From a virus, in the UHGV virus genome UHGV-0140723: a stretch of 12,374 nt of DNA. The stretch is one strand, 5' to 3'. Position numbers and translations under genes: made by a program. The number at the start of each line of letters is the position of its first letter. The stretch's first letter is position 1. Positions 237 through 7,459 of this stretch are shown in pieces. Under the pieces are notes generated by a model. That model saw only the letters and a list, made by a program, of their open reading frames with translations, was not told where the DNA came from and made no database searches.

Positions 237-324
237 TTTGAATCTCCAGTTTAGGATTTTATTTAGTGGGGGGAGGTCATCCCCCGTTGATTGACAATTT
301 ACAGATTTTTGATTGTCTCGTCAA
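237..324 (-). promoter_or_regulatory. PeSL-like cassette, family 1 (promoter, 5'UTR hairpin, RBS)
   Basis: Sense strand: -35 TTGACG (319-324), 17-bp spacer, -10 TAAATT (296-301), hairpin GGGGGA/TCCCCC (269-285), then RBS GGAG and ATG. The -35 and -10 lie inside the 3' end and stop codon of CDS 299..829. Confidence 0.6.
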
Positions 325-829
325 TATCTTTTTCAATATCTTTTAAAGTTTTCTCTAAGTTCTTGATATTGAACGTTAAACCTTCACCGAGAGTCTTAGA
401 GTAACCGCTAGGGCGTAAATCATGCAGCTTGATTTCTTCCACATTGGATAAGTTTACCATCTCACCATTTGCAGCATAGGCTATTGATACAGTATTTTTA
501 GGTGCGTTGTAAAACTTGTTTAAGGACTTGATAGAACGTTCATAAGCCATTTTATAGCTATTTAAAAGGTTTTTAACGTGGCTGTGAACGTTTTTACACT
601 CATCTAAATAAAGACCTAAAAACATCGGGAGAAGTTCCGCGACAGCTTGCATAAAGTGAGAGACCACAACGGTTGCAACATTACGACGATGAACGTAATA
701 AGCCCCGTTTTCTGATTTGGTAATGGTTGCAAAGTGTACCCCATTACAACGAAATTCATAGGTATCTTTAACAGGCTTAGACATTACATTATTTGAACGA
801 ATATAGTTGATAGCTTTGAACTTGTTCAT
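299..829 (-). CDS. hypothetical protein (176 aa, MNKFKAINYIRSNN...)
   Basis: ATG at 827-829 sits directly behind the conserved cassette (+ strand cattttagaatctcctagtttaagg). The six-frame ORF 299..922 extends this frame upstream through the regulatory cassette from a TTG codon, which I treat as an artefact. Confidence 0.65.
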   Translation of the reverse strand: MNKFKAINYIRSNNVMSKPVKDTYEFRCNGVHFATITKSENGAYYVHRRNVATVVVSHFMQAVAELLPMFLGLYLDECKNVHSHVKNLLNSYKMAYERSIKSLNKFYNAPKNTVSIAYAANGEMVNLSNVEEIKLHDLRPSGYSKTLGEGLTFNIKNLEKTLKDIEKDIDETIKNL

Positions 830-922
830 TTTAGAATCTCCTAGTTTAAGGACTTTACTTAGTAGGGAGGTTATTGCCTCCCCGTTGATGAGTAATTTAC
901 TTGTTTTGATATCTGATTGCAA
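830..922 (-). promoter_or_regulatory. PeSL-like cassette, family 1
   Basis: Sense strand: -35 TTGCAA (917-922), 17 bp, -10 TAAATT (894-899), hairpin GGGAGG/CCTCCC (865-882), RBS AGGAGA, ATG at 829. Confidence 0.6.
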
Positions 923-990
923 GCAATTTTTTAAGTCTATCTATAAAGAATCTTTTAAGTTAATCCCTTTTAGATAAACCCCCTCGAACA

Positions 991-1019
991 AAGTTACCAA
1001 TGTCAAGAGGGATTGTCAA
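991..1019 (-). promoter_or_regulatory. additional sigma70-like promoter upstream of the 830..922 cassette
   Basis: Sense strand TTGACA (1014-1019), 17 bp, TAACTT (991-996). The segment 923..1051 has no credible ORF. The -35 region tgtcaacatctttttaaa recurs at 2724-2741. Confidence 0.4.
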
Positions 1020-1051
1020 CATCTTTTTAAAAGTTTTTTGTAAGTTATTGA

Positions 1052-1393
1052 TTAACTGATGAATATTTTTTCAGGTTTTACATAGCTGATACGCTGATTT
1101 TTTAGTAGGCTATCCCATAACAAGGCGGCAATGTGCCCATATCCGGCCTCACGCAGCCCCTTCATCGTTTCAACTCGACTCTCAAAACGATTTGCGTAAT
1201 ACTCGCTATTAAGTGTCGTTTTGTTCCCTTCGTTATCTGTATGGATGATTTGCATCACTTGAAAGGGGCTGACATCCTCGCCTTTGTTCCACTGCTCAAA
1301 GTATTTTAGGCACTGCATAGGTGACATCTTATCACTTACTTGAGTTGACCAAGATGAATCTTCTTTATCGGTAATTACAGTTACATAAGCCAT
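1052..1393 (-). CDS. hypothetical protein (113 aa)
   Basis: ATG at 1391-1393 directly behind a family-1 cassette with RBS AGGAGA; ORF from the track. Confidence 0.7.
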   Translation of the reverse strand: MAYVTVITDKEDSSWSTQVSDKMSPMQCLKYFEQWNKGEDVSPFQVMQIIHTDNEGNKTTLNSEYYANRFESRVETMKGLREAGYGHIAALLWDSLLKNQRISYVKPEKIFIS

Positions 1394-1487
1394 TTTAGAA
1401 TCTCCTAGTTTAAGGACTTTATTTAGTGGGGAAGGTCATTCCCTCCCCGTTGATTGACAATTTACAGACTTTTATCAGGCTTGTCTA
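1394..1487 (-). promoter_or_regulatory. PeSL-like cassette, family 1
   Basis: Sense strand: -35 TAGACA (1482-1487, overlapping the TAG stop of CDS 1485..1718), 17 bp, -10 TAAATT (1459-1464), hairpin GGGGAGGG/CCTTCCCC with one G.U wobble (1428-1448), RBS, ATG 1393. Confidence 0.6.
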
Positions 1488-1718
1488 GTCTTTTTCAATG
1501 ATAATTTCATATTGACCATCGACACTGTCAAAATAGACGCCGTCTTCATCTTCTGTCTTAAAGTAGCATTGAATATCATCACTGGCGGGATAGTCTTGTC
1601 TTGCTATCTGGCAAACTTGAATAGCATTTTCTTTACTCCCTGTAAACTCCTCAAGCCCTTTAAAATCACATGAATGACCATTACAAATAGAAAGGATAAG
1701 ATAAACGGTTGTAAGCAT
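1485..1718 (-). CDS. small protein with hydrophobic N-terminus and 4 Cys (77 aa); possibly exported
   Basis: ATG at 1716-1718 with RBS AAGGG about 8 nt upstream. N-terminus MLTTVYLILSICNGHSC is signal-peptide-like. No cassette upstream, only a short hairpin (1737-1751), so probably co-transcribed with 1782..2345. Confidence 0.55.
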   Translation of the reverse strand: MLTTVYLILSICNGHSCDFKGLEEFTGSKENAIQVCQIARQDYPASDDIQCYFKTEDEDGVYFDSVDGQYEIIIEKD

Positions 1719-1781
1719 GATTTAAGCCCTTTAAATGGCCCTGTATGGGCCTTAAGTTGGAAGTTGGTGTCTTTGTACTGA

Positions 1782-2345
1782 TTAACCTAAAAAGTCTTTT
1801 AAATTGCGCTCTGTGATGTTTGCCGTGATTTTATCCAGCAAGTCACAAAACACGGAACTATCACCGCTATTCTGTACAATTTTCGCCATACTTAACAAAT
1901 CATCGTCAACATAGCCTAAATTGCGGTTAGTTGCATCTGGTACAAAGAAAGGTGCATACATCGCACTAAATTTCGTCGAGTGAAGGCCAATAATCCAATT
2001 TTTATCAAAGTGTCCGGTAAAGCTGGCGATATCGCTCATGTTGTCACAAGAATAATCATCCTCTAGCTCTTCCTCTGGGATATCCATCTCAATGACAATT
2101 ACGTCCTGCGTTTCCATTTGGAAAGCTGCCGTAATAAGCCCAGATTCTAAAGCGTTTTGAATGCAGCGTTCACGAATGTAAGAATCTTCCTCATCTTCCA
2201 GACATTCCGTTTTGATAATCTTGTTCATTGGGTAAACGTAGAAACAATCATCCATGTATGAGCAGTTCCAGATTCCTTCCGGCTTGTCGCCACCATTCAG
2301 CAGGTTTACAAAGTTTTTGAGGGTAGTTCCGTGATAGCATTTCAT
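1782..2345 (-). CDS. hypothetical protein (187 aa); possible H-Y-E class ADP-ribosyltransferase-like fold (low-confidence functional call)
   Basis: ATG 2343-2345 behind a family-2 cassette. N-terminal MKCYHGTTLKNFVNLLNGG and downstream GIWNCSYMDDCFYVY resemble, from memory, the YHGT...GG and W-x-x-(F/S)-Y motifs of diphtheria toxin and exotoxin A and the DarT N-terminal motif. No search was run. Confidence 0.45.
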   Translation of the reverse strand: MKCYHGTTLKNFVNLLNGGDKPEGIWNCSYMDDCFYVYPMNKIIKTECLEDEEDSYIRERCIQNALESGLITAAFQMETQDVIVIEMDIPEEELEDDYSCDNMSDIASFTGHFDKNWIIGLHSTKFSAMYAPFFVPDATNRNLGYVDDDLLSMAKIVQNSGDSSVFCDLLDKITANITERNLKDFLG

Positions 2346-2427
2346 TTTTGAATCTCCTAGTTTAAGGATTGAGTGGTAAAGCTCTTTATCTGGGGCTTAA
2401 GTTATCAACTTTTAAGCCCCTTGTAAA
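2346..2427 (-). promoter_or_regulatory. PeSL-like cassette, family 2
   Basis: Sense strand: upstream stop TAA, then -35 CTTTACA (2422-2427), 17-bp spacer containing the 5' arm of hairpin GGGGCTTAA/TTAAGCCCC (2392-2420), -10 TAACTT (2399-2404) preceded by TG, then AGATAAAGAGCTTTACC...CTAAACTAGGAGATTCAAAAATG. Confidence 0.55.
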
Positions 2428-2432
2428 GTACT

Positions 2433-2636
2433 TTATTTGTTATTTTTGACAACTTTTAAAACTGCAAGGTAACCTAAGCAATAAGAATCACCGAAAAGAG
2501 TCCTACCCATGAAAGAATCCTCTTTGATATCCTTTGCAGTGACAGTTTTTTCTACGCCGTGGGAAAGGACTACATCACCAACTTTGATATCTTTGATGTG
2601 TGTTGTTTCAATGGTTAAGCCGTTAATAATAGCCAT
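2433..2636 (-). CDS. hypothetical protein (67 aa)
   Basis: ATG 2634-2636 behind a family-1 cassette; stop TAA at 2433-2435 is the first triplet of the next cassette. Confidence 0.6.
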   Translation of the reverse strand: MAIINGLTIETTHIKDIKVGDVVLSHGVEKTVTAKDIKEDSFMGRTLFGDSYCLGYLAVLKVVKNNK

Positions 2637-2729
2637 TTTAGAATCTCCTAGTTTAAGGACTTTATTTAGTAGGGAGGTTATTGCCTCCCCGTTGATGAGT
2701 AATTTAATCTATCTAAAAATCAGTGTCAA
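2637..2729 (-). promoter_or_regulatory. PeSL-like cassette, family 1
   Basis: Sense strand: -35 TTGACA (2724-2729), 17 bp, -10 TAAATT (2701-2706), hairpin GGGAGG/CCTCCC (2672-2689), RBS, ATG 2636. The -35 directly follows the stop of CDS 2737..3141. Confidence 0.6.
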
Positions 2730-2736
2730 CATCTTT

Positions 2737-3141
2737 TTAAAGTTCTGCGTAGATTGCATCACAGACATCACGGAAATCATGATTTGTTAAGTTACGTTGT
2801 AACCAAGTGGCAAAGAAATCAGCGATTGCAAAATTAGCGTCATACTCGACGGATAGCCACACTTTAACAGCAAATCGGAACATCTTTAAATCAAGCTCTT
2901 TATTCATTACCTTTGATTTGCCTAACATGTCGGCCATCTCATGTTGTGCACCGTCTAGCGTGATACCGGCTGCAACGTCAGCCAATGAGTTTTTTACGCT
3001 TTCAACGTCTAAGATAATACTTTGAATCTTCCCAATAATGTTTTGCAGTGTTTCATCTGGTGCTGATGATGTGATAACATTAATCCGGTTGACGGTCAAA
3101 CGTGCTTTTAAGATAGATAACTCACGATTATTAATAGCCAT
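2737..3141 (-). CDS. hypothetical protein (134 aa)
   Basis: ATG 3139-3141 behind a family-2 cassette (RBS TGGAGA); ORF from the track. Confidence 0.7.
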   Translation of the reverse strand: MAINNRELSILKARLTVNRINVITSSAPDETLQNIIGKIQSIILDVESVKNSLADVAAGITLDGAQHEMADMLGKSKVMNKELDLKMFRFAVKVWLSVEYDANFAIADFFATWLQRNLTNHDFRDVCDAIYAEL

Positions 3142-3221
3142 TTTTGAATCTCCAATTTAGGATTTAGTGGTAAAGCTCTTTATCTGGGGCTTACTTTATC
3201 GAACTATAAGCCCCTTGTAAA
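3142..3221 (-). promoter_or_regulatory. PeSL-like cassette, family 2
   Basis: -35 TTTACA (3216-3221), 17 bp, -10 TAAAGT (3193-3198), hairpin GGGGCTTA/TAAGCCCC (3186-3214) with a 13-nt loop. The central part is identical to the copy at 5239-5267. Confidence 0.55.
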
Positions 3222-3226
3222 GTACT

Positions 3227-3499
3227 TTATGCTAAATGCAGCTTTTTGCCTTTTACTATGATGTAACTTGATGCGCTATTGCCGCATACATCTTGATAAA
3301 TTCTACGCAAACGGCCTTCGTAGTATACTTTCCAGCTAGTTGGAATCTTTTTCCCGTATCCGGTAGCAGTTTTTTGGAATCCTGCAAGTTGCCAATCCAA
3401 AATGTGCTGTTCAGCTTGTAAATCCTCGAAGTGCATTACACCGTTCACATAGTGGCGTAGGGTTACGTTTAAGGTGCGACCGTTGTTAGTAGTGTACAT
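3227..3499 (-). CDS. hypothetical protein (90 aa)
   Basis: ATG 3497-3499 behind a family-1 cassette; stop TAA 3227-3229 abuts the -35 of the next cassette. Confidence 0.65.
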   Translation of the reverse strand: MYTTNNGRTLNVTLRHYVNGVMHFEDLQAEQHILDWQLAGFQKTATGYGKKIPTSWKVYYEGRLRRIYQDVCGNSASSYIIVKGKKLHLA

Positions 3500-3593
3500 T
3501 TTTGAATCTCCTAGTTTAAGGACTTTACTTAGTGGGGAAGGTCATTCCCTCCCCGTTGATTAGTAATTTACTTGTTTTTAAAACTAAAATCAA
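3500..3593 (-). promoter_or_regulatory. PeSL-like cassette, family 1
   Basis: -35 TTGATT (3588-3593, overlapping the TGA stop of CDS 3590..3922), 17 bp, -10 TAAATT (3565-3570), hairpin GGGGAGGG/CCTTCCCC (3534-3554), RBS, ATG 3499. Confidence 0.55.
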
Positions 3594-3922
3594 GAGAAAT
3601 TTTTTCGTTTGTTCAGTTCTTGGACAATTACAGTGTAATAGTCTTTTAAGTCACTGATATTTAAAGCATTTATCAGAGAGTTATAATCATCGACAAGCTG
3701 AAAATTATCTTTGAAAATGTCACTGATTTGATAAGTTTTTGATTGAAATCTGAAGCTCATTTCTAACCGTTTTATTTGTTCATCACTTAAACGCTCCAGA
3801 AAACTCATTACAAGGCTATTATTGACCTGTTGCGTGATTGCCTTACTTGCCAGATTGTAGGCGCTGTACGCCTTATATAGCGCCATAATAGCAATGATTG
3901 CAGTGATACCCATCATTAACAT
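3590..3922 (-). CDS. small membrane protein (110 aa, N-terminal transmembrane helix MLMMGITAIIAIMALY)
   Basis: ATG 3920-3922 overlaps the stop of the upstream gene (ATGTTAA, 7-nt overlap); RBS AGAGGAAG 8 nt upstream. Hydrophobic N-terminus seen directly. Confidence 0.6.
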   Translation of the reverse strand: MLMMGITAIIAIMALYKAYSAYNLASKAITQQVNNSLVMSFLERLSDEQIKRLEMSFRFQSKTYQISDIFKDNFQLVDDYNSLINALNISDLKDYYTVIVQELNKRKNFS

Positions 3923-4212
3923 AGTGCTTCCTCTTTACGTGACACTTTGCCATTTACAGTTATCTCATAAGAATCTAGTAAATCACTTTCAGACTTAACA
4001 GGACTTTTACAAGTATCATCATAAACATTAATTTGCAATACAGGCTTTTTATACTCCCTGCAACTATTCCATAAGCAAATCACTACACGACGGCCTTTTA
4101 TTTTGCCGTGTAACCATTCCATAACCTCATGAGTATTTCTTGAGGTCTCGATAAAATCAATTTTGTTGAGTAACTTGCTTAGATTTTCCCTAACTTTATT
4201 TGATAATTTCAT
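3916..4212 (-). CDS. hypothetical protein (98 aa)
   Basis: ATG 4210-4212 behind a family-2 variant cassette; translationally coupled to 3590..3922. Confidence 0.65.
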   Translation of the reverse strand: MKLSNKVRENLSKLLNKIDFIETSRNTHEVMEWLHGKIKGRRVVICLWNSCREYKKPVLQINVYDDTCKSPVKSESDLLDSYEITVNGKVSRKEEALC

Positions 4213-4292
4213 TTTTGAGTCTCCTAGTTTAAGGTTAGTTAATAAAGCTCTTTATCTGGGGCTATCTTATCAGCTTGATAACCCCGTGTAAA
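4213..4292 (-). promoter_or_regulatory. PeSL-like cassette, family 2 variant
   Basis: -35 CTTTACA (4287-4292), -10 TAAGAT (4264-4269), hairpin sense GGGGTTATC/GATAGCCCC (4258-4285). Inner stem base pairs differ from other family-2 copies by compensatory changes plus one G.U wobble. Confidence 0.55.
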
Positions 4293-4301
4293 GAGGTCTA
4301 T

Positions 4302-4814
4302 TTAGTTCTTAAAGATATTCATCACTGAATCTTTTAATGCTTCCAAGCGTTCTAATACTTCAGATTCTGCGTCTGCGTTGTTCACTTCCTCTTTTAGTCT
4401 GTTATCTAAATCATCGCCGTCACTGTAGCACCAATCGAAAGCATAACCAATATAAAAACTCTCTAAAACCGTGCTACCGTTTGCATCTACAACTTTCGCG
4501 GCGATGTTATATTCTGAAGCCTCTAAATCTCTTTCTAGTTCTTTCTGTAAGCTGATATAAGCCTCTTTTGATGGATTTTCCCGGCCTTGTTTTGCATAGT
4601 CACTCGAAAGCTGTTTCAGGCTGTAATGTAAAGGGATTGCATATTTAAATTCATTACGCTGATAAATAGGATTTTTAACAGTAACACCGCCTTGATGGTT
4701 GTCTGTAAATTCCCAATTATCAAGGTTATGGCTTGCTTCGTAGCAATTAACAGCTTCGTAAATGATGGAAAATTTTTCTTTTACAACTTCAAAGGTAGCG
4801 TCTACAGTTTTCAT
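4302..4814 (-). CDS. hypothetical protein (170 aa, acidic C-terminal half)
   Basis: ATG 4812-4814 behind a family-2 cassette; ORF from the track. Confidence 0.7.
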   Translation of the reverse strand: MKTVDATFEVVKEKFSIIYEAVNCYEASHNLDNWEFTDNHQGGVTVKNPIYQRNEFKYAIPLHYSLKQLSSDYAKQGRENPSKEAYISLQKELERDLEASEYNIAAKVVDANGSTVLESFYIGYAFDWCYSDGDDLDNRLKEEVNNADAESEVLERLEALKDSVMNIFKN

Positions 4815-4894
4815 TTTTGAATCTCCAGTTTAGGATTTAGTGGTAAAGCTCTTTATCTGGGGCTTAAGATATCAGCTTTTAAGCCCCTTGTAAA
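4815..4894 (-). promoter_or_regulatory. PeSL-like cassette, family 2
   Basis: -35 TTTACA (4889-4894), 17 bp, -10 TATCTT (4866-4871), hairpin GGGGCTTAA/TTAAGCCCC (4859-4887). Confidence 0.55.
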
Positions 4895-4902
4895 GTACTT
4901 TA

Positions 4903-5193
4903 TCAGTTAATTTTCAGCTTTGCATAACCTCTCATTGTACGAATGGGAGACGTTAAGGTTACGCGTCTGATATATGCCTTTTTAGTGTATACAGTTGTCT
5001 TCCCGATGGTGTTTACATGCGTGAAAAGGTTTATTGGTGAATTTTTTAAATTCATTTGTTTATCAGCCTTCACACCCCATCTTACAGCAGTTTGTTTTCC
5101 GTTGTCAACCACTTTTCCGCCTAACTTTTTCGCCATGATGCGAGCGTCATCACGAGTTTTTGCAGGAATTACAACGTTTTTGATAATAGCCAT
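4903..5193 (-). CDS. hypothetical basic protein (96 aa, MAIIKNVVIPAKTRDDARIMAKKLGG...)
   Basis: ATG 5191-5193 behind cassette RBS TGGAGAAC. The track ORF 4903..5208 starts at a TTG inside the RBS region and is an artefactual 5-codon extension. Confidence 0.65.
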   Translation of the reverse strand: MAIIKNVVIPAKTRDDARIMAKKLGGKVVDNGKQTAVRWGVKADKQMNLKNSPINLFTHVNTIGKTTVYTKKAYIRRVTLTSPIRTMRGYAKLKIN

Positions 5194-5274
5194 TTTTAAG
5201 TTCTCCAATTTAGGATTTAGTGGTAAAGCTCTTTATCTGGGGCTTACTTTATCGAACTATAAGCCCCTTGTAAA
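5194..5274 (-). promoter_or_regulatory. PeSL-like cassette, family 2
   Basis: -35 TTTACA (5269-5274), hairpin GGGGCTTA/TAAGCCCC (5239-5267), same loop as the 3142..3221 copy. Confidence 0.55.
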
Positions 5275-5282
5275 GTACTTTA

Positions 5283-5663
5283 TCAGTTAATTTTGAAAAT
5301 TGTCACATAGCCGTCACTGCCGATTATTTGAGACACTCCAGCTTTTTCCACTGAATAGCCCATATTTTCAAGATGATAAACAGCATCATCATAACCATAT
5401 GCGCCACCCTGATAACGTCTCTTATCGCATCTTATCAGGTTTTTACCACGTCCTGCAAGTGCATTCAGTACGGCTTTTTCACTTGATAGCGTACCATCTA
5501 ACATGGTTGCCGTGTAATGGTTGATTTTATTCCCGTTAATATCATACTTAAAATTGAATGCGTGAACAACAATCAATTTGCCGTTAAATTTTTCATCAAG
5601 TGACTTCTCCAGTGCGTTGCGGAAGTTGTCTTTGTTGATGAATTTCGGTGCACGATAAGCCAT
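5283..5663 (-). CDS. hypothetical protein (126 aa)
   Basis: ATG 5661-5663 behind a family-2 cassette. Last codons and stop (AAA ATT AAC TGA) are identical to those of CDS 4903..5193. Confidence 0.7.
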   Translation of the reverse strand: MAYRAPKFINKDNFRNALEKSLDEKFNGKLIVVHAFNFKYDINGNKINHYTATMLDGTLSSEKAVLNALAGRGKNLIRCDKRRYQGGAYGYDDAVYHLENMGYSVEKAGVSQIIGSDGYVTIFKIN

Positions 5664-5746
5664 TTTTGAATCTCCTAGTTTAAGGGTTAATTTAGTAAAG
5701 CTCTTTATCTGGGGCTTAAGATATCAGCTTTTAAGCCCCCTGTAAA
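5664..5746 (-). promoter_or_regulatory. PeSL-like cassette, family 2
   Basis: -35 TTTACA(G) (5741-5746), hairpin GGGGCTTAA/TTAAGCCCC (5711-5739), RBS AGGAGA, ATG 5663. Confidence 0.55.
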
Positions 5747-5751
5747 GTACT

Positions 5752-5958
5752 TTATTTGTCGTAGTAGTAAATCGCTGTCTGCCTTGTAAATTTCTTAGTG
5801 TTTCTTGTAAGGTAGCAATTAGAATTAATAGCCGTTTCTACATAGTTGCAATAGTCGGCTTCTGATATTCTGGACCATACGCCACAGATTTTCATGTAAA
5901 AACGTTTTACCTTTGTGTTAACGTTAGTTGTAACCATTAATTCACGATAGTAAGTCAT
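5752..5958 (-). CDS. hypothetical protein (68 aa)
   Basis: ATG 5956-5958 with RBS TGGAGAA; driven by the divergent cassette at 5959..6037. Confidence 0.6.
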   Translation of the reverse strand: MTYYRELMVTTNVNTKVKRFYMKICGVWSRISEADYCNYVETAINSNCYLTRNTKKFTRQTAIYYYDK

Positions 5959-6037
5959 TTTTGGATTCTCCAGTTTAGGAAGTGGGCTGGCTTGCCCGTC
6001 TGATGCAAATATTAAATAACCATAGTCAAAGAGTCAA
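5959..6037 (-). promoter_or_regulatory. divergent promoter + stem-loop + RBS cassette (first module of the array)
   Basis: Sense strand: -35 TTGACT (6032-6037), 17 bp, -10 TAATAT (6009-6014), short hairpin GGGC/GCCC (5984-5997), RBS TGGAGAA, ATG 5958. Same architecture as family 1, different sequence. Confidence 0.55.
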
Positions 6038-6203
6038 TAGGAATTTTAAAAATATTTTTGCAAAAAAAAAAAACTGTAATGAAACGGGTGCGCGCGATTA
6101 CCACAAAACAGAACTATAATCAAGAATTATTTTTCAATCCGCTACAAATTTTTCTGTTGACTTTTATTTTCAGATGTGGTAGCCTTGTGAGAAATGGCGA
6201 CAG

Positions 6204-6400
6204 CCCCACCTACCCCCACCTACCTGCACAATTCTAAAATGATTTTTCTTGCCCGACCTGAGCGGGGTCTGCACGTTTTGAAAATGAAAAAGCTCTTTGG
6301 AGATTACCTGCACAGTTTGAAAATGAATTTTCTCTTTGGAGTTCAAAATTTTCTCTACAGATTTCTCTACAGAACTCTACCTGCACAATTCTAAAATGAA
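6204..6400. repeat. cluster of short direct repeats in an ORF-free segment
   Basis: Four copies of CTGCAC(A/G)nTT(C/T)(T/G)AAAATGA starting at 6224, 6269, 6309 and 6382, two of them within a ~40-bp tandem unit (6268-6302 vs 6308-6342, 28/35 identical); tandem cccacctac x2 (6204-6222); tandem tttctctacag x2 (6351-6373). Confidence 0.6.
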
Positions 6401-6443
6401 AAAGCCCTCCTTACCTGAAAAATTTACCAGATAAGAAAGGCTT
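6391..6443 (-). terminator. intrinsic terminator-like long hairpin downstream of the macrodomain gene
   Basis: Sense RNA: AAGCCUUUCUUAUCUG / loop GUAAAUUUUU / CAGGUAAGGAGGGCUU gives a 16-bp stem with three G.U wobbles, followed by UUUCAUUUU. The wobbles would be C-A mismatches on the opposite strand. Confidence 0.5.
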
Positions 6444-6472
6444 AGGCTATTGTGAATATCCTACAGAGTTTC

Positions 6473-7258
6473 TTAGTTCTTTGCGTCTAAGAAGGTAACT
6501 TCTGGTGAAGAGAAGATTGCCTCGATATCCTCATCAGTTCTTGCATAGATATAAGCTTCTGCATCACTACCAAATGTTACAGCAATTCTGTGATTGCTCT
6601 TTGACAGGTGGGTAACTAGAGCGTTACTTAGAGACATCTTTTCAACCGGAGGGTTACTTTGATGTATCTTACCTTTTCTTCGTCTGAAGAGGGTAACTGC
6701 GTTATCTGTGAACACTGCTACACCTGCAAAGTATTCTGGTTCACAGTAGTTCTTCCAACCTGAGCGTAACTTGTGGTACATCTCGCCTTCATAGACATAC
6801 AGATAAACATCTACACTCTTCATCACCTGATTGATGATAACTGTGATGGCTTGAGGGTCAAGTCCACCGATACCTGCACCAATCATAGGTAAACCAACTT
6901 TCTTCAACTGATTAACTTCACAGTATCTGTTAAGCTGCTTCAAAGATGACTCTAAAGCACTGTATCGGGCATCTTTACCAGTCTTAAGCTGAGTGTAAAG
7001 GTTAGCTATACGGCCTTGTTCTAAACGTGCTACAGAGAAATTACCCAGTAAATTTTCACAGGGTTTGTGGCCTATACCACCTGCATATAGATAAACTTCT
7101 GTATCGGTCTCATATGCTTTTGGGTAAAGTTTAGAAATCTTGTCAGCGATACCTGCACCCATTAAATTCATACAGTTGCAACCGTGACCGATGATGTCAA
7201 ACTTACCTTTATCAAATGCGGCAAAGATATCACCATTGATTATTTTTACAATACCCAT
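6473..7258 (-). CDS. macrodomain protein, TARG1/OARD1/DarG-like N-terminal domain (~150 aa) plus unknown ~110-aa C-terminal domain
   Basis: 261-aa ORF; ATG 7256-7258 abuts the upstream stop (TAAATG) with RBS GGGAGAG. Motifs GDIF...GHGCNCMNLMGAGIA and LPMIGAGIGGLD match, from memory, the GDLF...HCISEDCRMGAGIA and MPRIGCGLD signature regions of human TARG1. Confidence 0.7.
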   Translation of the reverse strand: MGIVKIINGDIFAAFDKGKFDIIGHGCNCMNLMGAGIADKISKLYPKAYETDTEVYLYAGGIGHKPCENLLGNFSVARLEQGRIANLYTQLKTGKDARYSALESSLKQLNRYCEVNQLKKVGLPMIGAGIGGLDPQAITVIINQVMKSVDVYLYVYEGEMYHKLRSGWKNYCEPEYFAGVAVFTDNAVTLFRRRKGKIHQSNPPVEKMSLSNALVTHLSKSNHRIAVTFGSDAEAYIYARTDEDIEAIFSSPEVTFLDAKN

Positions 7259-7459
7259 TTAACATCTCTCCCAAGACTCTTTATCTTCTGAAGGTTTTAC
7301 ACGCTGTCCTTCGTGGTCTACCCAGATGCACCCACAACCTTCACAGATTACTGGCATTGCGTAGCCAGCTTTAAAGTCATCTTCAGTGATAAGACCTTTT
7401 AAGTCACCTGTATCACGTCCGAACATTTCGATAGAACAATCTTTACAGAAGTCAGCCAT
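7259..7459 (-). CDS. small Cys-rich protein (66 aa, CxxC...CEGCGC, zinc-ribbon-like)
   Basis: ATG 7457-7459 overlaps the TGA of the upstream gene (ATGGCTGA); RBS AAGAGG 9 nt upstream. The track ORF 7259..7537 begins at a GTG inside the upstream gene; I prefer the coupled ATG. Confidence 0.5.
   Translation of the reverse strand: MADFCKDCSIEMFGRDTGDLKGLITEDDFKAGYAMPVICEGCGCIWVDHEGQRVKPSEDKESWERC

Follow-up and report, generated by a model that had tools for sequence, protein, structure and literature searches.

The 514-bp gap at positions 5959-6472 carries an array of direct repeats that, judged by sequence comparison, is a real functional element of FelixO1-like phages. The gap is gene-free and lies between two early genes of the window (the whole 12,374-nt stretch analyzed), which is the early region of a Felixounavirus with every gene on the minus strand. 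The array is taken to be functional because it is better conserved than the adjacent protein gene and is absent elsewhere in the genome. By the same comparison, the segment is a self-contained non-coding locus common to the whole FelixO1-like subfamily (Ounavirinae), and the array probably acts either as a small repeat RNA or as a protein-binding array.

FelixO1-like phages are widely used in Salmonella and E. coli typing, biocontrol, and therapy, and a literature search returned no Felixounavirus transcriptome, sRNA, or replication-origin paper. Current annotations leave the gap blank or fill it with spurious small CDSs, at a locus that is single-copy, subfamily-wide, non-coding, and under stronger constraint than its adjacent gene. 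Under either kind of function, the 18-nt core of the repeats offers a precise target for mutagenesis and for capturing the binding partner.

Architecture of the array and its boundaries

The gap and its right-hand flank contain the following features:

6009-6037, minus strand: sigma-70-type promoter of the downstream 68-aa gene (TTGACT-17-TAATAT, 9/12 match)
6040-6075, unstranded: AT-rich near-palindrome TTTTAAAAATATTTTTG, then an A12 tract (6062-6073)
6076-6101, unstranded: GC-rich palindrome-containing element (gtaat 6076-6080, gcgcgcg 6090-6096, attac 6097-6101)
6106-6166, plus strand: most conserved block of the gap, with a motif-2 copy CGCTACAAATTTTTCT (6140-6155) and TTGACT (6157-6162)
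6157-6185, plus strand: putative promoter facing the array (TTGACT 6157-6162, 17-nt spacer, TG 6177-6178, TAGCCT 6180-6185)
6166-6223, plus strand: variable leader, which in the window is a plus-strand C-rich allele ('type A') ending in two copies of CCCCACCTAC
6204-6223, plus strand: tandem short repeat, the 10-nt CCCCACCTAC twice
6224-6242, plus strand: unit 1 core, CTGCACAATTCTAAAATGA, kept in all genera
6269-6287, plus strand: unit 2 core, CTGCACGTTTTGAAAATGA, then AAAAGCTCTTTGGAG
6308-6326, plus strand: unit 3 core, CTGCACAGTTTGAAAATGA, then ATTTTCTCTTTGGAG
6350-6373, plus strand: motif-2 tandem, TTTCTCTACAGA twice, within the long interval separating unit 3 from unit 4
6381-6399, plus strand: unit 4 core, CTGCACAATTCTAAAATGA, identical to unit 1, abutting the hairpin and overlapping the T-tract of the minus-strand terminator
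6402-6443, minus strand: intrinsic terminator of the macro-domain gene, 17 pairs, the right boundary
6473-7258, minus strand: macro-domain or 'phosphatase' gene (Pfam Macro E = 4.5e-7; phrog_335)

Four co-oriented copies of the 18-base core TGCAC-N6-RAAATGA start at 6224, 6269, 6308, and 6381 on the plus strand, 45, 39, and 73 nt apart from start to start. The core is bipartite, with 5 + 6 invariant bases around a fixed 6-nt spacer, so that 11 positions of the 18-bp site are invariant. A scan tolerating 3 mismatches gives 3 matches, against a shuffle mean of 0.01, and at least 3 such matches occur in 0 of 200 shuffles. The initial annotation had described repeats, an A12 tract, and a GC palindrome between the terminator of the macro-domain gene and the next promoter, and all of these features are found. 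Its coordinates need small corrections, with the starts of units 3 and 4 each given one base too high (6309 and 6382), and its repeat unit proves too short: the repeats belong to a 34-nt family with 82% and 71% identity between copies. The tract, the palindrome, and both tandem short repeats can be read directly at the positions listed above, and the flanking minus-strand terminator (6443-6402) and minus-strand promoter (6037-6009) are likewise confirmed.

Both sequence motifs of the array are local to the gap. Motif 2, whose pattern CT-T-CAGA-TTCT is invariant in 11 diverse sequences, is confined to the gap both in the window and in FelixO1. A search of the rest of the genome for the core, suggested as a check in the initial annotation and run on the 86-kb FelixO1 genome, finds no copy outside the gap. 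Among IMG/VR contigs, the core occurs only in Ounavirinae-sized contigs and in one unrelated 10-kb contig. A general promoter class, with TGCAC-N5-TAAAAT as a -10 element plus upstream box, is rejected because the motif is nowhere else in FelixO1; position 11 also varies between A and G, whereas a -10 hexamer requires A.

The right boundary is a terminator on one strand only. The hairpin scores as a terminator on the minus strand; on the plus strand, where it directly follows unit 4, it has C-A mismatches and no U-tract. Folding against shuffled sequence gives z = -2.46 for the minus strand versus z = -0.19 for the plus strand. In every genus, the final repeat unit adjoins this terminator. The left boundary is the minus-strand promoter at 6037, which lies outside the array and is kept in relatives, including an Erwinia phage whose equivalent reads TTGACT-17-TATATT. 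Compared with the published UP consensus, the segment at 6040-6075 resembles an UP element for this promoter. The A-tract within it is polymorphic in length (A12 in the window, A5-A6 in relatives), and at the position of the GC-rich element relatives have other short GC palindromes (CGTGCGCACACG, CGCACGTATGCG).

Conservation across the subfamily

Four genera, Felixounavirus, Suspvirus, Mooglevirus, and Kolesnikvirus, retain the array, as does a divergent 88-kb phage with only 37% identity in the macro protein. Relatives carry 3-5 co-oriented units of about 38-45 nt in which the 11 core bases are invariant. Nucleotide identity is higher in the array than in the macro gene in each comparison (90% vs 73%, 81% vs 69%, and 74-78% vs 69-70%). 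The block at 6106-6166, unique within the FelixO1 genome, shows 82-92% identity to the window in phages with 69-73% identity in the macro gene. Ordinary coding sequence in relatives, without conserved repeats, would have counted against the initial annotation; the opposite is seen, the array being retained in every relative examined. The repeats are a real, selected element.

Unit spacing is less constant than the core itself. Intervals of 45/41/75-77 nt are found in other genera, 39/37/37 nt in an Erwinia phage, and 38 nt in locus L058, so that overall spacing falls at 37-45 and 73-77 nt, out of helical phase and different between genera. The macro gene is the constant, convergent neighbor of the array in relatives. 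This adjacency is kept in L058, where the macro protein is 37% identical and the other neighbors differ, and in L048.

The comparison also bears out the earlier view that the segment is non-coding. Mechanical ORFs of 45-66 aa can be drawn on both strands of the gap, and those of the window match no Pfam or PHROG family. Several GenBank records place small CDSs in the gap, on strands that differ between records, and one of these CDSs has a PHROG family. Because the spacing between units changes by lengths not divisible by 3, reading frames shift from genus to genus; the frames are thus unconserved and the array is therefore not coding. The plus-strand ORF is, as had been proposed, a by-product of translating the repeats.

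A putative plus-strand repeat RNA

The tentatively preferred reading, ranked first here and not considered in the initial annotation, is that the array specifies a small unstructured plus-strand RNA whose repeated units serve as multivalent binding or decoy sites. A plus-strand promoter, opposite in direction to the surrounding genes, would transcribe the 3-5 imperfect direct repeats as far as the hairpin that ends the convergent macro gene, or perhaps beyond it. The product would be a largely unstructured small RNA of roughly 210-260 nt, in which each unit would show the invariant core UGCAC-N6-RAAAUGA as an equivalent docking or cleavage-decoy site for one sequence-specific protein, allowing the RNA to work as a multivalent sponge or decoy. 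We infer which strand is transcribed, where the RNA starts and ends, that it is the RNA and not the DNA that acts, and which partner, of what nature, is bound.

The arrangement of promoter-like sequence around the array is consistent with such a transcript. All repeat units are oriented as the facing plus promoter is. In the window, this promoter matches only 8/12 consensus positions and is weak, which is why the promoter scan did not list it. All non-Erwinia genera nevertheless keep the -35 hexamer along with the first two bases, 'TA', of the -10 element, and in these genera the block containing TTGACT is the most conserved part of the gap. In an Erwinia phage, a 10/12 sigma-70 promoter (TTGACG-18-TATACT) faces the array from farther upstream than in the window, back-to-back with the promoter of the neighboring gene, and the array is the sole thing it could transcribe. 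The variable spacing, out of helical phase, fits independent RNA sites better than cooperative DNA binding. The window also has other genes of counter-defense type, with rIIA/B and polynucleotide kinase as the FelixO1 homologues.

Published expression data from FelixO1 show transcription of the gap, timed differently from that of its neighbors. By RT-PCR that was not strand-specific, 'ORF14' reaches its maximum at 25 min, and ORF13 and ORF16, on either side of it, at 5 min (PMC3185647 Table 3). ORF14 is the ORF formerly annotated in the gap; it is missing between ORF13 and ORF15 of FelixO1, and the note on wV8 gp13 agrees.

Several observations sit less easily with a repeat RNA. The plus promoter of the window is weak at 8/12, and the hairpin, without a plus-strand U-tract, is optimized for the minus strand. 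The leader is C-rich here, but most lineages have a G-run-rich 'type B' segment (GGGGAGAGGGGGAGTAAGAGGGGGAGAGGGG) in its place, which is hard to square with a strand-specific leader role. The two leaders are not an inversion of each other at any significant level (182/2000 shuffles score equally well). Presence throughout the subfamily would be expected of a core cis-element more than of an accessory counter-defense factor. The fixed 6-nt spacer, with half-sites about one helical turn apart, would also be expected for a DNA-binding protein. RNAalifold, which cannot model pseudoknots, finds no conserved secondary structure (0 compensatory pairs; consensus -9.8 kcal/mol over 273 columns); ToxI stems are only 3 bp. 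The plus-strand fold of the window, at z = -0.19, is likewise on a par with shuffled sequence.

In layout, the array resembles an orphan type III antitoxin array such as the 'pseudo-ToxI' of phage PhiTE, a likeness by analogy. Pseudo-ToxI is an array without a toxin gene that neutralizes a host abortive-infection toxin (PMC3475682). Like type III antitoxins (ToxI, CptI, TenpI), the array is intergenic and non-coding; its 3-5 direct repeats of about 38-45 nt are co-oriented with a putative upstream sigma-70-type promoter, and a hairpin comes after them. ToxI repeats average 38.1 nt in 2.8 copies, with a range of 1.9-5.6 (PMC3401426 Table 2), and both the unit length and the copy number of the array fall inside the published type III range (approximately 31-62 nt per repeat and no fewer than 1.9 copies). 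The repeats of tenpI arrays are non-identical (PMC12283969). As in ToxI (GUGCAG-CUAG-AAAU), the array has an A-rich AAAU-type site at the unit boundary preceded by UGCA, and enterobacterial ToxI units end in a comparable GUGCR-N4-6-AAAAU.

The differences are also clear. Unlike type III antitoxins, the array has unequal units with one 73-77-nt interval, is universal in the subfamily rather than sporadic, has no supported pseudoknot or conserved stem, and combines a weak promoter in the window with a hairpin that has no plus-strand U-tract. In sequence it resembles none of the ToxI or TenpI arrays examined, and such resemblance to a cognate antitoxin is the defining trait of a mimic like pseudo-ToxI. 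A profile of the unit scores no better than shuffles against five enterobacterial ToxI arrays (E. coli, Salmonella, Enterobacter). Kinship with TenpI is rejected on one Klebsiella tenpIN locus, whose repeats are unrelated. One genuine toxIN locus, L076, has the core on its sense strand (ToxN Pfam E = 2.7e-47). Homology to ToxI through this locus is rejected: among 85 pattern hits in bacteria and metagenomes it is the sole unique contig with a ToxN gene (L076 and L106 are one contig, counted once), and for that reason the match may be coincidence.

The array is followed by no plus-strand gene, and an HMM built from ToxN sequences has no match in the phage-type metagenomic loci; the absence of a toxin gene is expected if the array is a mimic. 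A blastn search of 5,426 complete E. coli genomes finds no host counterpart, and 72,556 plasmids (blastn, E up to 10) return only 15 short matches, each covering at most 18% of the query, with a best E of about 0.2. Rfam 15, including CRISPR repeats, ToxI, and phage sRNAs, has no family at gathering score in the window, and at E <= 10 only four chance-level matches fall within 5950-6500. Neither tRNA nor tmRNA is found.

A second known class offers a looser parallel. CsrB and CsrC are sponge RNAs that titrate CsrA through repeated linear motifs. The array would share with them a short RNA format with many copies of one short motif, in which copy number matters rather than overall fold. The array motif differs in being longer (18 nt) and bipartite, and GGA motifs are unconserved in the Erwinia phages.

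A more specific form of the preferred RNA reading joins the array to its constant neighbor. An RNA counter-defense decoy and the adjacent macro gene would make up a two-part anti-toxin module, a proposal that must be considered doubtful. The decoy in such a module would be an orphan antitoxin-like or substrate-mimicking RNA that sequesters a ribonuclease or RNA-modifying toxin used by the host for abortive infection, and it would be fixed across the subfamily rather than lab-selected like pseudo-ToxI. An RNA decoy would be the first naturally fixed RNA-based anti-toxin device in a major virulent coliphage group and would bear on host-range prediction.

Possible replication origin and other rival readings

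The strongest rival to a repeat RNA, possible but less likely, is a DNA iteron array at a transcription-activated origin: monomers of an initiator, from phage or host, would occupy the four 18-bp sites. Together with the G-run segment that follows it in most lineages, the facing promoter would open or prime the adjacent AT-rich DNA for the T7-like primase-helicase and polymerase. The iteron-like origin of the initial annotation stays viable, if unproven. At least 3 direct repeats of a conserved site, within the 17-22 bp usual for iterons, are present, but a common helical register is not.

Iteron origins such as lambda ori and the plasmid and P1 iterons have a spacing of about 21-24 bp. The array shares with them several direct repeats of about 18 bp with conserved ends and a variable center, its half-sites lying about one helical turn apart as in monomer-binding iterons. 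Like transcription-activated origins (the T7 primary origin, T4 oriF/oriG), it has AT-rich surroundings and is present once per genome, with a putative promoter pointing into the repeats and, in most lineages, G-clusters on the non-template strand after that promoter. Its single copy, subfamily-wide presence, and conservation above the flanking genes are those of an essential cis-element, and a divergent relative has a second short-repeat cluster (TGTTAA) beside the array. The replication genes of these phages are T7-like and have no known origin (PMC3185647).

Other evidence counts against an origin. The spacing of the array, at about 38-45 bp for most units and 37-45 and 73-77 bp across genera, departs from that of iterons as well as from helical phase. 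In the window's lineage, the G-run segment is swapped for an unrelated C-rich one. No initiator candidate is recognized among the neighbors, a macro-domain protein and a 68-aa protein, and the lasting adjacency of the macro gene despite changed outer neighbors is unexpected for an origin. In FelixO1, change points at about 8 kb and 63 kb give one of the better GC-skew fits, but the skew is weak (RSS 0.385 vs 0.433), is no better than unrelated change-point pairs, is dominated by an outlier at 13-14 kb, and gives no convincing strand-composition switch. An origin or a key operator would provide a handle for phage engineering.

A packaging end is a separate candidate that fails on position. The 608-bp terminal repeats of UAB_Phi87 have been mapped experimentally (PMC4837284), and the gap lies about 22 kb inside this phage if the record starts at the mapped end.

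An operator or roadblock array is unlikely. Here, a phage early or middle protein bound to four DNA sites would shut off or insulate the boundary between the rIIA-to-macro operon and the next cassette, or control the divergent promoters. The array does sit exactly between the terminator and the back-to-back promoter-like elements, copies of a second local motif (CTCTACAGATTTCT) lie both inside the array and immediately before the -35 hexamer, and the expression timing of the gap differs from that of its neighbors. Asymmetric operators of about 17 bp bound by monomers exist, for example the C1 operators of phage P1. The sites, however, follow the facing promoter instead of overlapping it. No DNA-binding protein is recognized among the neighbors by Pfam, PHROG, or structure search; the 68-aa neighbor was rejected as a DNA-binding regulator, its confident AlphaFold model (pLDDT 89.5) having no nucleic-acid-binding fold and no structural neighbor at E <= 0.001. 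The regulator binding sites suggested in the initial annotation are viable and unproven, but a general temporal regulator is excluded because the motif occurs nowhere else in the genome.

It is more improbable that the array acts from the minus strand, with the units as duplicated tails of the macro terminator (half-stem plus U-tract) that provide back-up termination or a 3'-UTR element for the macro mRNA. Read on that strand, units 2 and 4 give GAGCUUUUUCAUUUU and GGGCUUUUUCAUUUU, which resemble the tail of the real terminator (itself overlapping unit 4), and the array always comes after the macro gene. The fold on this strand is better than chance, but its z-score is due to the one real hairpin and no unit has a conserved stem. 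Units 1 and 3 have A-runs rather than U-runs on the minus strand, the invariant GUGCA half plays no part in intrinsic termination, and the array sits after a terminator that already looks efficient.

Inverted cassette remnants, neutral decayed sequence, or a small repeat protein gene are scarcely credible and already contradicted by the comparative data, since the array is conserved above the neighboring gene across genera and its frames and annotated CDSs are inconsistent in the ways described above, although one such CDS has a PHROG family. The resemblance to cassettes that had suggested remnants comes down to the 11-mer ATTCTAAAATG, which just two of the four copies have, and these only in Felixounavirus. 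As had been noticed, this 11-mer is common to the minus strand elsewhere (10 matches vs 0.68 expected), where it forms the translation-initiation region of minus-strand genes and supplies their ATG start codon. The invariant TGCAC has no counterpart in the cassette leaders, where GGAG stands instead, and Erwinia phages keep the array even though the initiation region of its neighbor is unlike it.

The repeat array and its surroundings

For the region 5700-6800, a search brings up 223 phage records (80-99% identity), nearly all of them Escherichia/Salmonella Felixounavirus, and every credible gene in the window lies on the minus strand. The gap between the macro-domain gene and a 68-aa gene is a previously undescribed non-coding element, present once per genome across the whole subfamily, and fits no known family in full. 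The initial annotation of a repeat-packed, ORF-free segment is confirmed, and the case is far stronger than was visible from the sequence alone.

Features of the gap and its flanks (window coordinates)
5752-5958, minus: 68-aa gene, homologue of FelixO1 gp15 (phrog_5293, unknown function), one flank of the gap
5959-6472: gap, 514 bp, site of the repeat array
6037-6009, minus: promoter of the 68-aa gene, accompanied by a UP-like, AT-rich palindrome
6106-6166, plus: highly conserved 61-bp block, ending in a TTGACT region (6157-6162)
6166-6223, plus: leader that separates TTGACT from the first repeat, with two unrelated alleles of similar length
6177-6185, plus: TG-n-TAGCCT, seventeen bases past TTGACT
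6443-6402, minus: terminator of the macro gene, a hairpin at the right end of the gap
6473-7258, minus: macro-domain/'phosphatase' gene (Pfam Macro, phrog_335), the other flank

Four co-oriented copies of CTGCAC-N-AAAATGA start at 6224, 6269, 6308, and 6381; the first two starts were placed correctly at the outset, and the other two were off by one. Three or more motif matches occur in none of 200 dinucleotide-preserving shuffles (shuffle mean 0.01). Initially taken as 19 nt, the unit is longer, with copies that align across 34 nt at 71-82% identity and a consensus across relatives, YCTA(CC)TGCAC-RWWTYK-RAAATGA-(A5/WT4)-S-CYCTTTGGAG, of about 38-45 nt. The other elements first noted are present: two short tandems (6204-6223 and 6350-6373), an A12 tract (6062-6073), a GC-rich palindrome (6076-6101), and the flanking minus-strand terminator and promoter. 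Comparison with relatives marks the A12 tract as a polymorphic expansion; the short palindrome differs in sequence between lineages and keeps its palindromic character. On the plus strand, the order is 68-aa promoter, GC palindrome, conserved block, leader, four units, and macro-gene hairpin. AlphaFold models the 68-aa protein with confidence (pLDDT 89.5) as five strands and a single helix, and the model has no structural neighbor in the PDB at E <= 0.001.

The C-rich leader allele (plus strand), found in this window and part of Felixounavirus, contains the 10-nt unit CCCCACCTAC once or twice. The G-run allele, whose four or more G3+ runs form a canonical G-quadruplex-type motif, is carried by FelixO1, wV8, Suspvirus, and Mooglevirus; it is found in most lineages and all other genera, with Erwinia phages having a shortened form. 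Within the complete FelixO1 genome, the core (TGCAC-N6-RAAATGA) is confined to the gap, with 0 matches in 30 shuffles. A second motif, CTCTACAGATTTCT, is likewise restricted to the gap, where it lies in the long spacer of the array and, in one copy, just upstream of TTGACT.

An 11-mer common to the array and the minus strand elsewhere belongs to stereotyped early-gene cassettes, in which it forms the ribosome-binding spacer and start codon. Across 250-5700 (minus strand), at least 10 early genes have in front of them a stereotyped ~95-nt leader of one of two kinds, as before the starts at 1393, 2345, 2636, 3141, 3499, 4212, 4814, and 5663. Each comprises a promoter, a GC hairpin overlapping or following it, and then ...CCTTAAACTAGGAGATTC(T/A)AAAATG. 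The leaders correspond to two direct repeats, of 57 bp and 39 bp, that the FelixO1 genome paper lists. Shared leaders turn the region into a series of interchangeable gene cassettes, and whole-cassette insertions distinguish relatives from one another.

Conservation across relatives

A gap-only blastn query retrieves 290 phage records, with Suspvirus, Mooglevirus, and Kolesnikvirus (Erwinia and Hafnia phages) among them. Every genus has a syntenic gap of ~460-520 bp after the macro gene with 3-5 co-oriented cores, and the units of Erwinia phages stand in strict tandem (spacings 39, 37, and 37 nt). In L058, a divergent 88-kb phage, the macro protein shares only 37% identity and the array's other neighbors are different genes, a Dam methylase and an unrelated one of 132 aa, yet five units of 38 nt are retained, convergent with the macro gene. 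The L058 array is split into 3 + 2 units by a ~100-nt G-rich insert, and directly upstream of it (~590-770 of IMG/VR UViG_3300045988_063805) eight or nine (A)TGTTAA(A) repeats are densely clustered in very AT-rich DNA.

Nucleotide identity is higher in the array than in the adjacent macro gene: 90% versus 73% in the comparison locus L031, 81% versus 69% in L032, and 74-78% versus 69-70% in Mooglevirus and Suspvirus. The 61-bp block is 82-92% identical. Conservation of the array above that of an adjacent protein-coding gene amounts to purifying selection on a non-coding element. Ordinary coding sequence does not take the place of the repeats in relatives, an outcome opposite to the one that would have told against the initial annotation.

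Among 2.9 million viral contigs, the two-copy pattern occurs only in Ounavirinae-sized contigs and one unrelated 10-kb contig (L050/L136). This GC-richer virus carries two tandem 50-nt intergenic repeats at 6254-6321, CACTGCACTATGTTAAAATGATTG(A/G)TTTTTAAATTGCCTCC, which have the core, a downstream T-run, and TTGCC in common with the Ounavirinae unit. Their neighbors are genes of 151 aa and 543 aa, the latter of which, judged by eye only, resembles a large terminase subunit.

Transcription and the active form

An Erwinia phage has, facing its array, a sigma-70 promoter that matches at 10/12 positions (TTGACG-18-TATACT); it lies back-to-back with the neighboring gene's promoter and has no ORF to serve. 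RT-PCR of predicted FelixO1 ORFs places the peak of ORF13 (the macro gene) and ORF16 at 5 min and that of ORF14 at 25 min (PMC3185647 Table 3). ORF14 was formerly annotated in the gap and is missing between ORF13 and ORF15 in the current RefSeq record; wV8 gp13, located in the array, cites its accession. The RT-PCR, which is not strand-specific, does show that RNA exists over the gap with kinetics unlike both neighbors.

Ranked first, if tentatively, is a transcribed, unstructured repeat RNA that would serve as a multivalent binding or decoy platform. The ORF14 result, a dedicated promoter and closing hairpin, the orientation of all units with the array-facing promoter, a spacing that is out of helical register and not constant between genera, and the persistent link to the macro gene argue for it. 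However, the promoter on the plus strand is weak in the window, no U-tract follows the hairpin on that strand, and the leader alleles are opposite in strand composition. RNAalifold on 11 diverse sequences finds 0 compensatory pairs and only -9.8 kcal/mol, and the plus-strand fold is no better than shuffles (z = -0.19); the minus strand beats them (z = -2.46) because of the terminator.

Somewhat less probable is an iteron or origin array, in which the DNA itself would be active; single copy per genome and universal presence favor such a reading, as do direct repeats with two invariant half-sites fixed six bases apart (~one helical turn). In change-point analysis of FelixO1 GC/AT skew, a switch at 8 kb coupled with one at 63 kb is one of the better solutions, with an improvement that is small and not unique. 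An operator or roadblock array is unlikely. Duplicated terminator tails or a 3'-UTR element, despite the constant macro-gene neighbor, are more doubtful still. A relic or coding sequence is highly improbable, mechanical ORFs on both strands notwithstanding, and the gap is non-coding. Units 1 and 2 lie in another frame than units 3 and 4 in Mooglevirus and Suspvirus, a 2-nt deletion shifts the frame in wV8, and unit spacings (45/39/73 versus 45/41/75-77) differ by other than multiples of three. GenBank records annotate small CDSs in the gap inconsistently, on either strand, and the window's gap ORFs match no Pfam or PHROG family.

Just past the window's left end, FelixO1 (NC_005282.1, ~12.3-13.9 kb) has ~1.6 kb without an annotated gene between convergent ORF23 and ORF24; the kilobase at 13-14 kb is that genome's strongest GC-skew outlier.

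Likeness to type III antitoxins

The array's unit length and copy number fall within published type III antitoxin ranges, and repeats of TenpI arrays need not be identical. ToxI units from enterobacterial plasmids (of E. coli, Salmonella, and Enterobacter) close with a similar element, GUGCR-N4-6-AAAAU, at which ToxN cuts; the ToxI sequence is confirmed in PMC8610362. Phage PhiTE sets a precedent, in that its orphan antitoxin-like array overcomes abortive infection. When 185,579 species-representative genomes are scanned for a pair of cores separated by 15-45 nt, 19 loci emerge. One of these, in an Acetatifactor MAG (L076, CAJGCP010000022.1, ~6580-7300, minus; same contig as L106), is a textbook toxIN locus, complete and apparently unannotated. 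Its TTGACA...TATACT promoter is followed by a pair of 37-nt repeats that end in UGCAC-AGCCCU-AAAAUGA, by a terminator, and then by the ToxN gene (Pfam PF13958, E = 2.7e-47).

Tests for homology came out negative. A ToxN gene occurs in only the Acetatifactor contig among 85 pattern matches, a 42-nt phage-unit profile scores ToxI arrays no better than shuffles, and a Klebsiella tenpI is unrelated to the phage unit. By blastn, none of 5,426 complete E. coli genomes gives a match, and 72,556 plasmids give only 15 short ones at chance level (E up to 10). Antitoxin mimicry therefore does not survive as homology and is kept only as an analogy of architecture and as a novel, if improbable, reading.

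Long intergenic tandem arrays of 21-nt period occur in Prevotellaceae MAGs (L078, L083, L086, L092), and others in an Ignavibacteriales MAG (L079, L087, L088) and Caldilineaceae (L093, L142). Their unit fits (T/C)TTGCAC-N6-RAAATGA-N; there are several per genome, without a common neighboring gene or ToxN, and they may be chance pattern matches or an unrelated satellite family. On the K. pneumoniae plasmid NZ_CP056218.1 (L167), a minus-strand 153-aa ORF that crosses the circular record's start and is absent from the PLSDB gene table fits the published TenpN residue pattern, and two non-identical tenpI repeats with a terminator lie at ~290-520.
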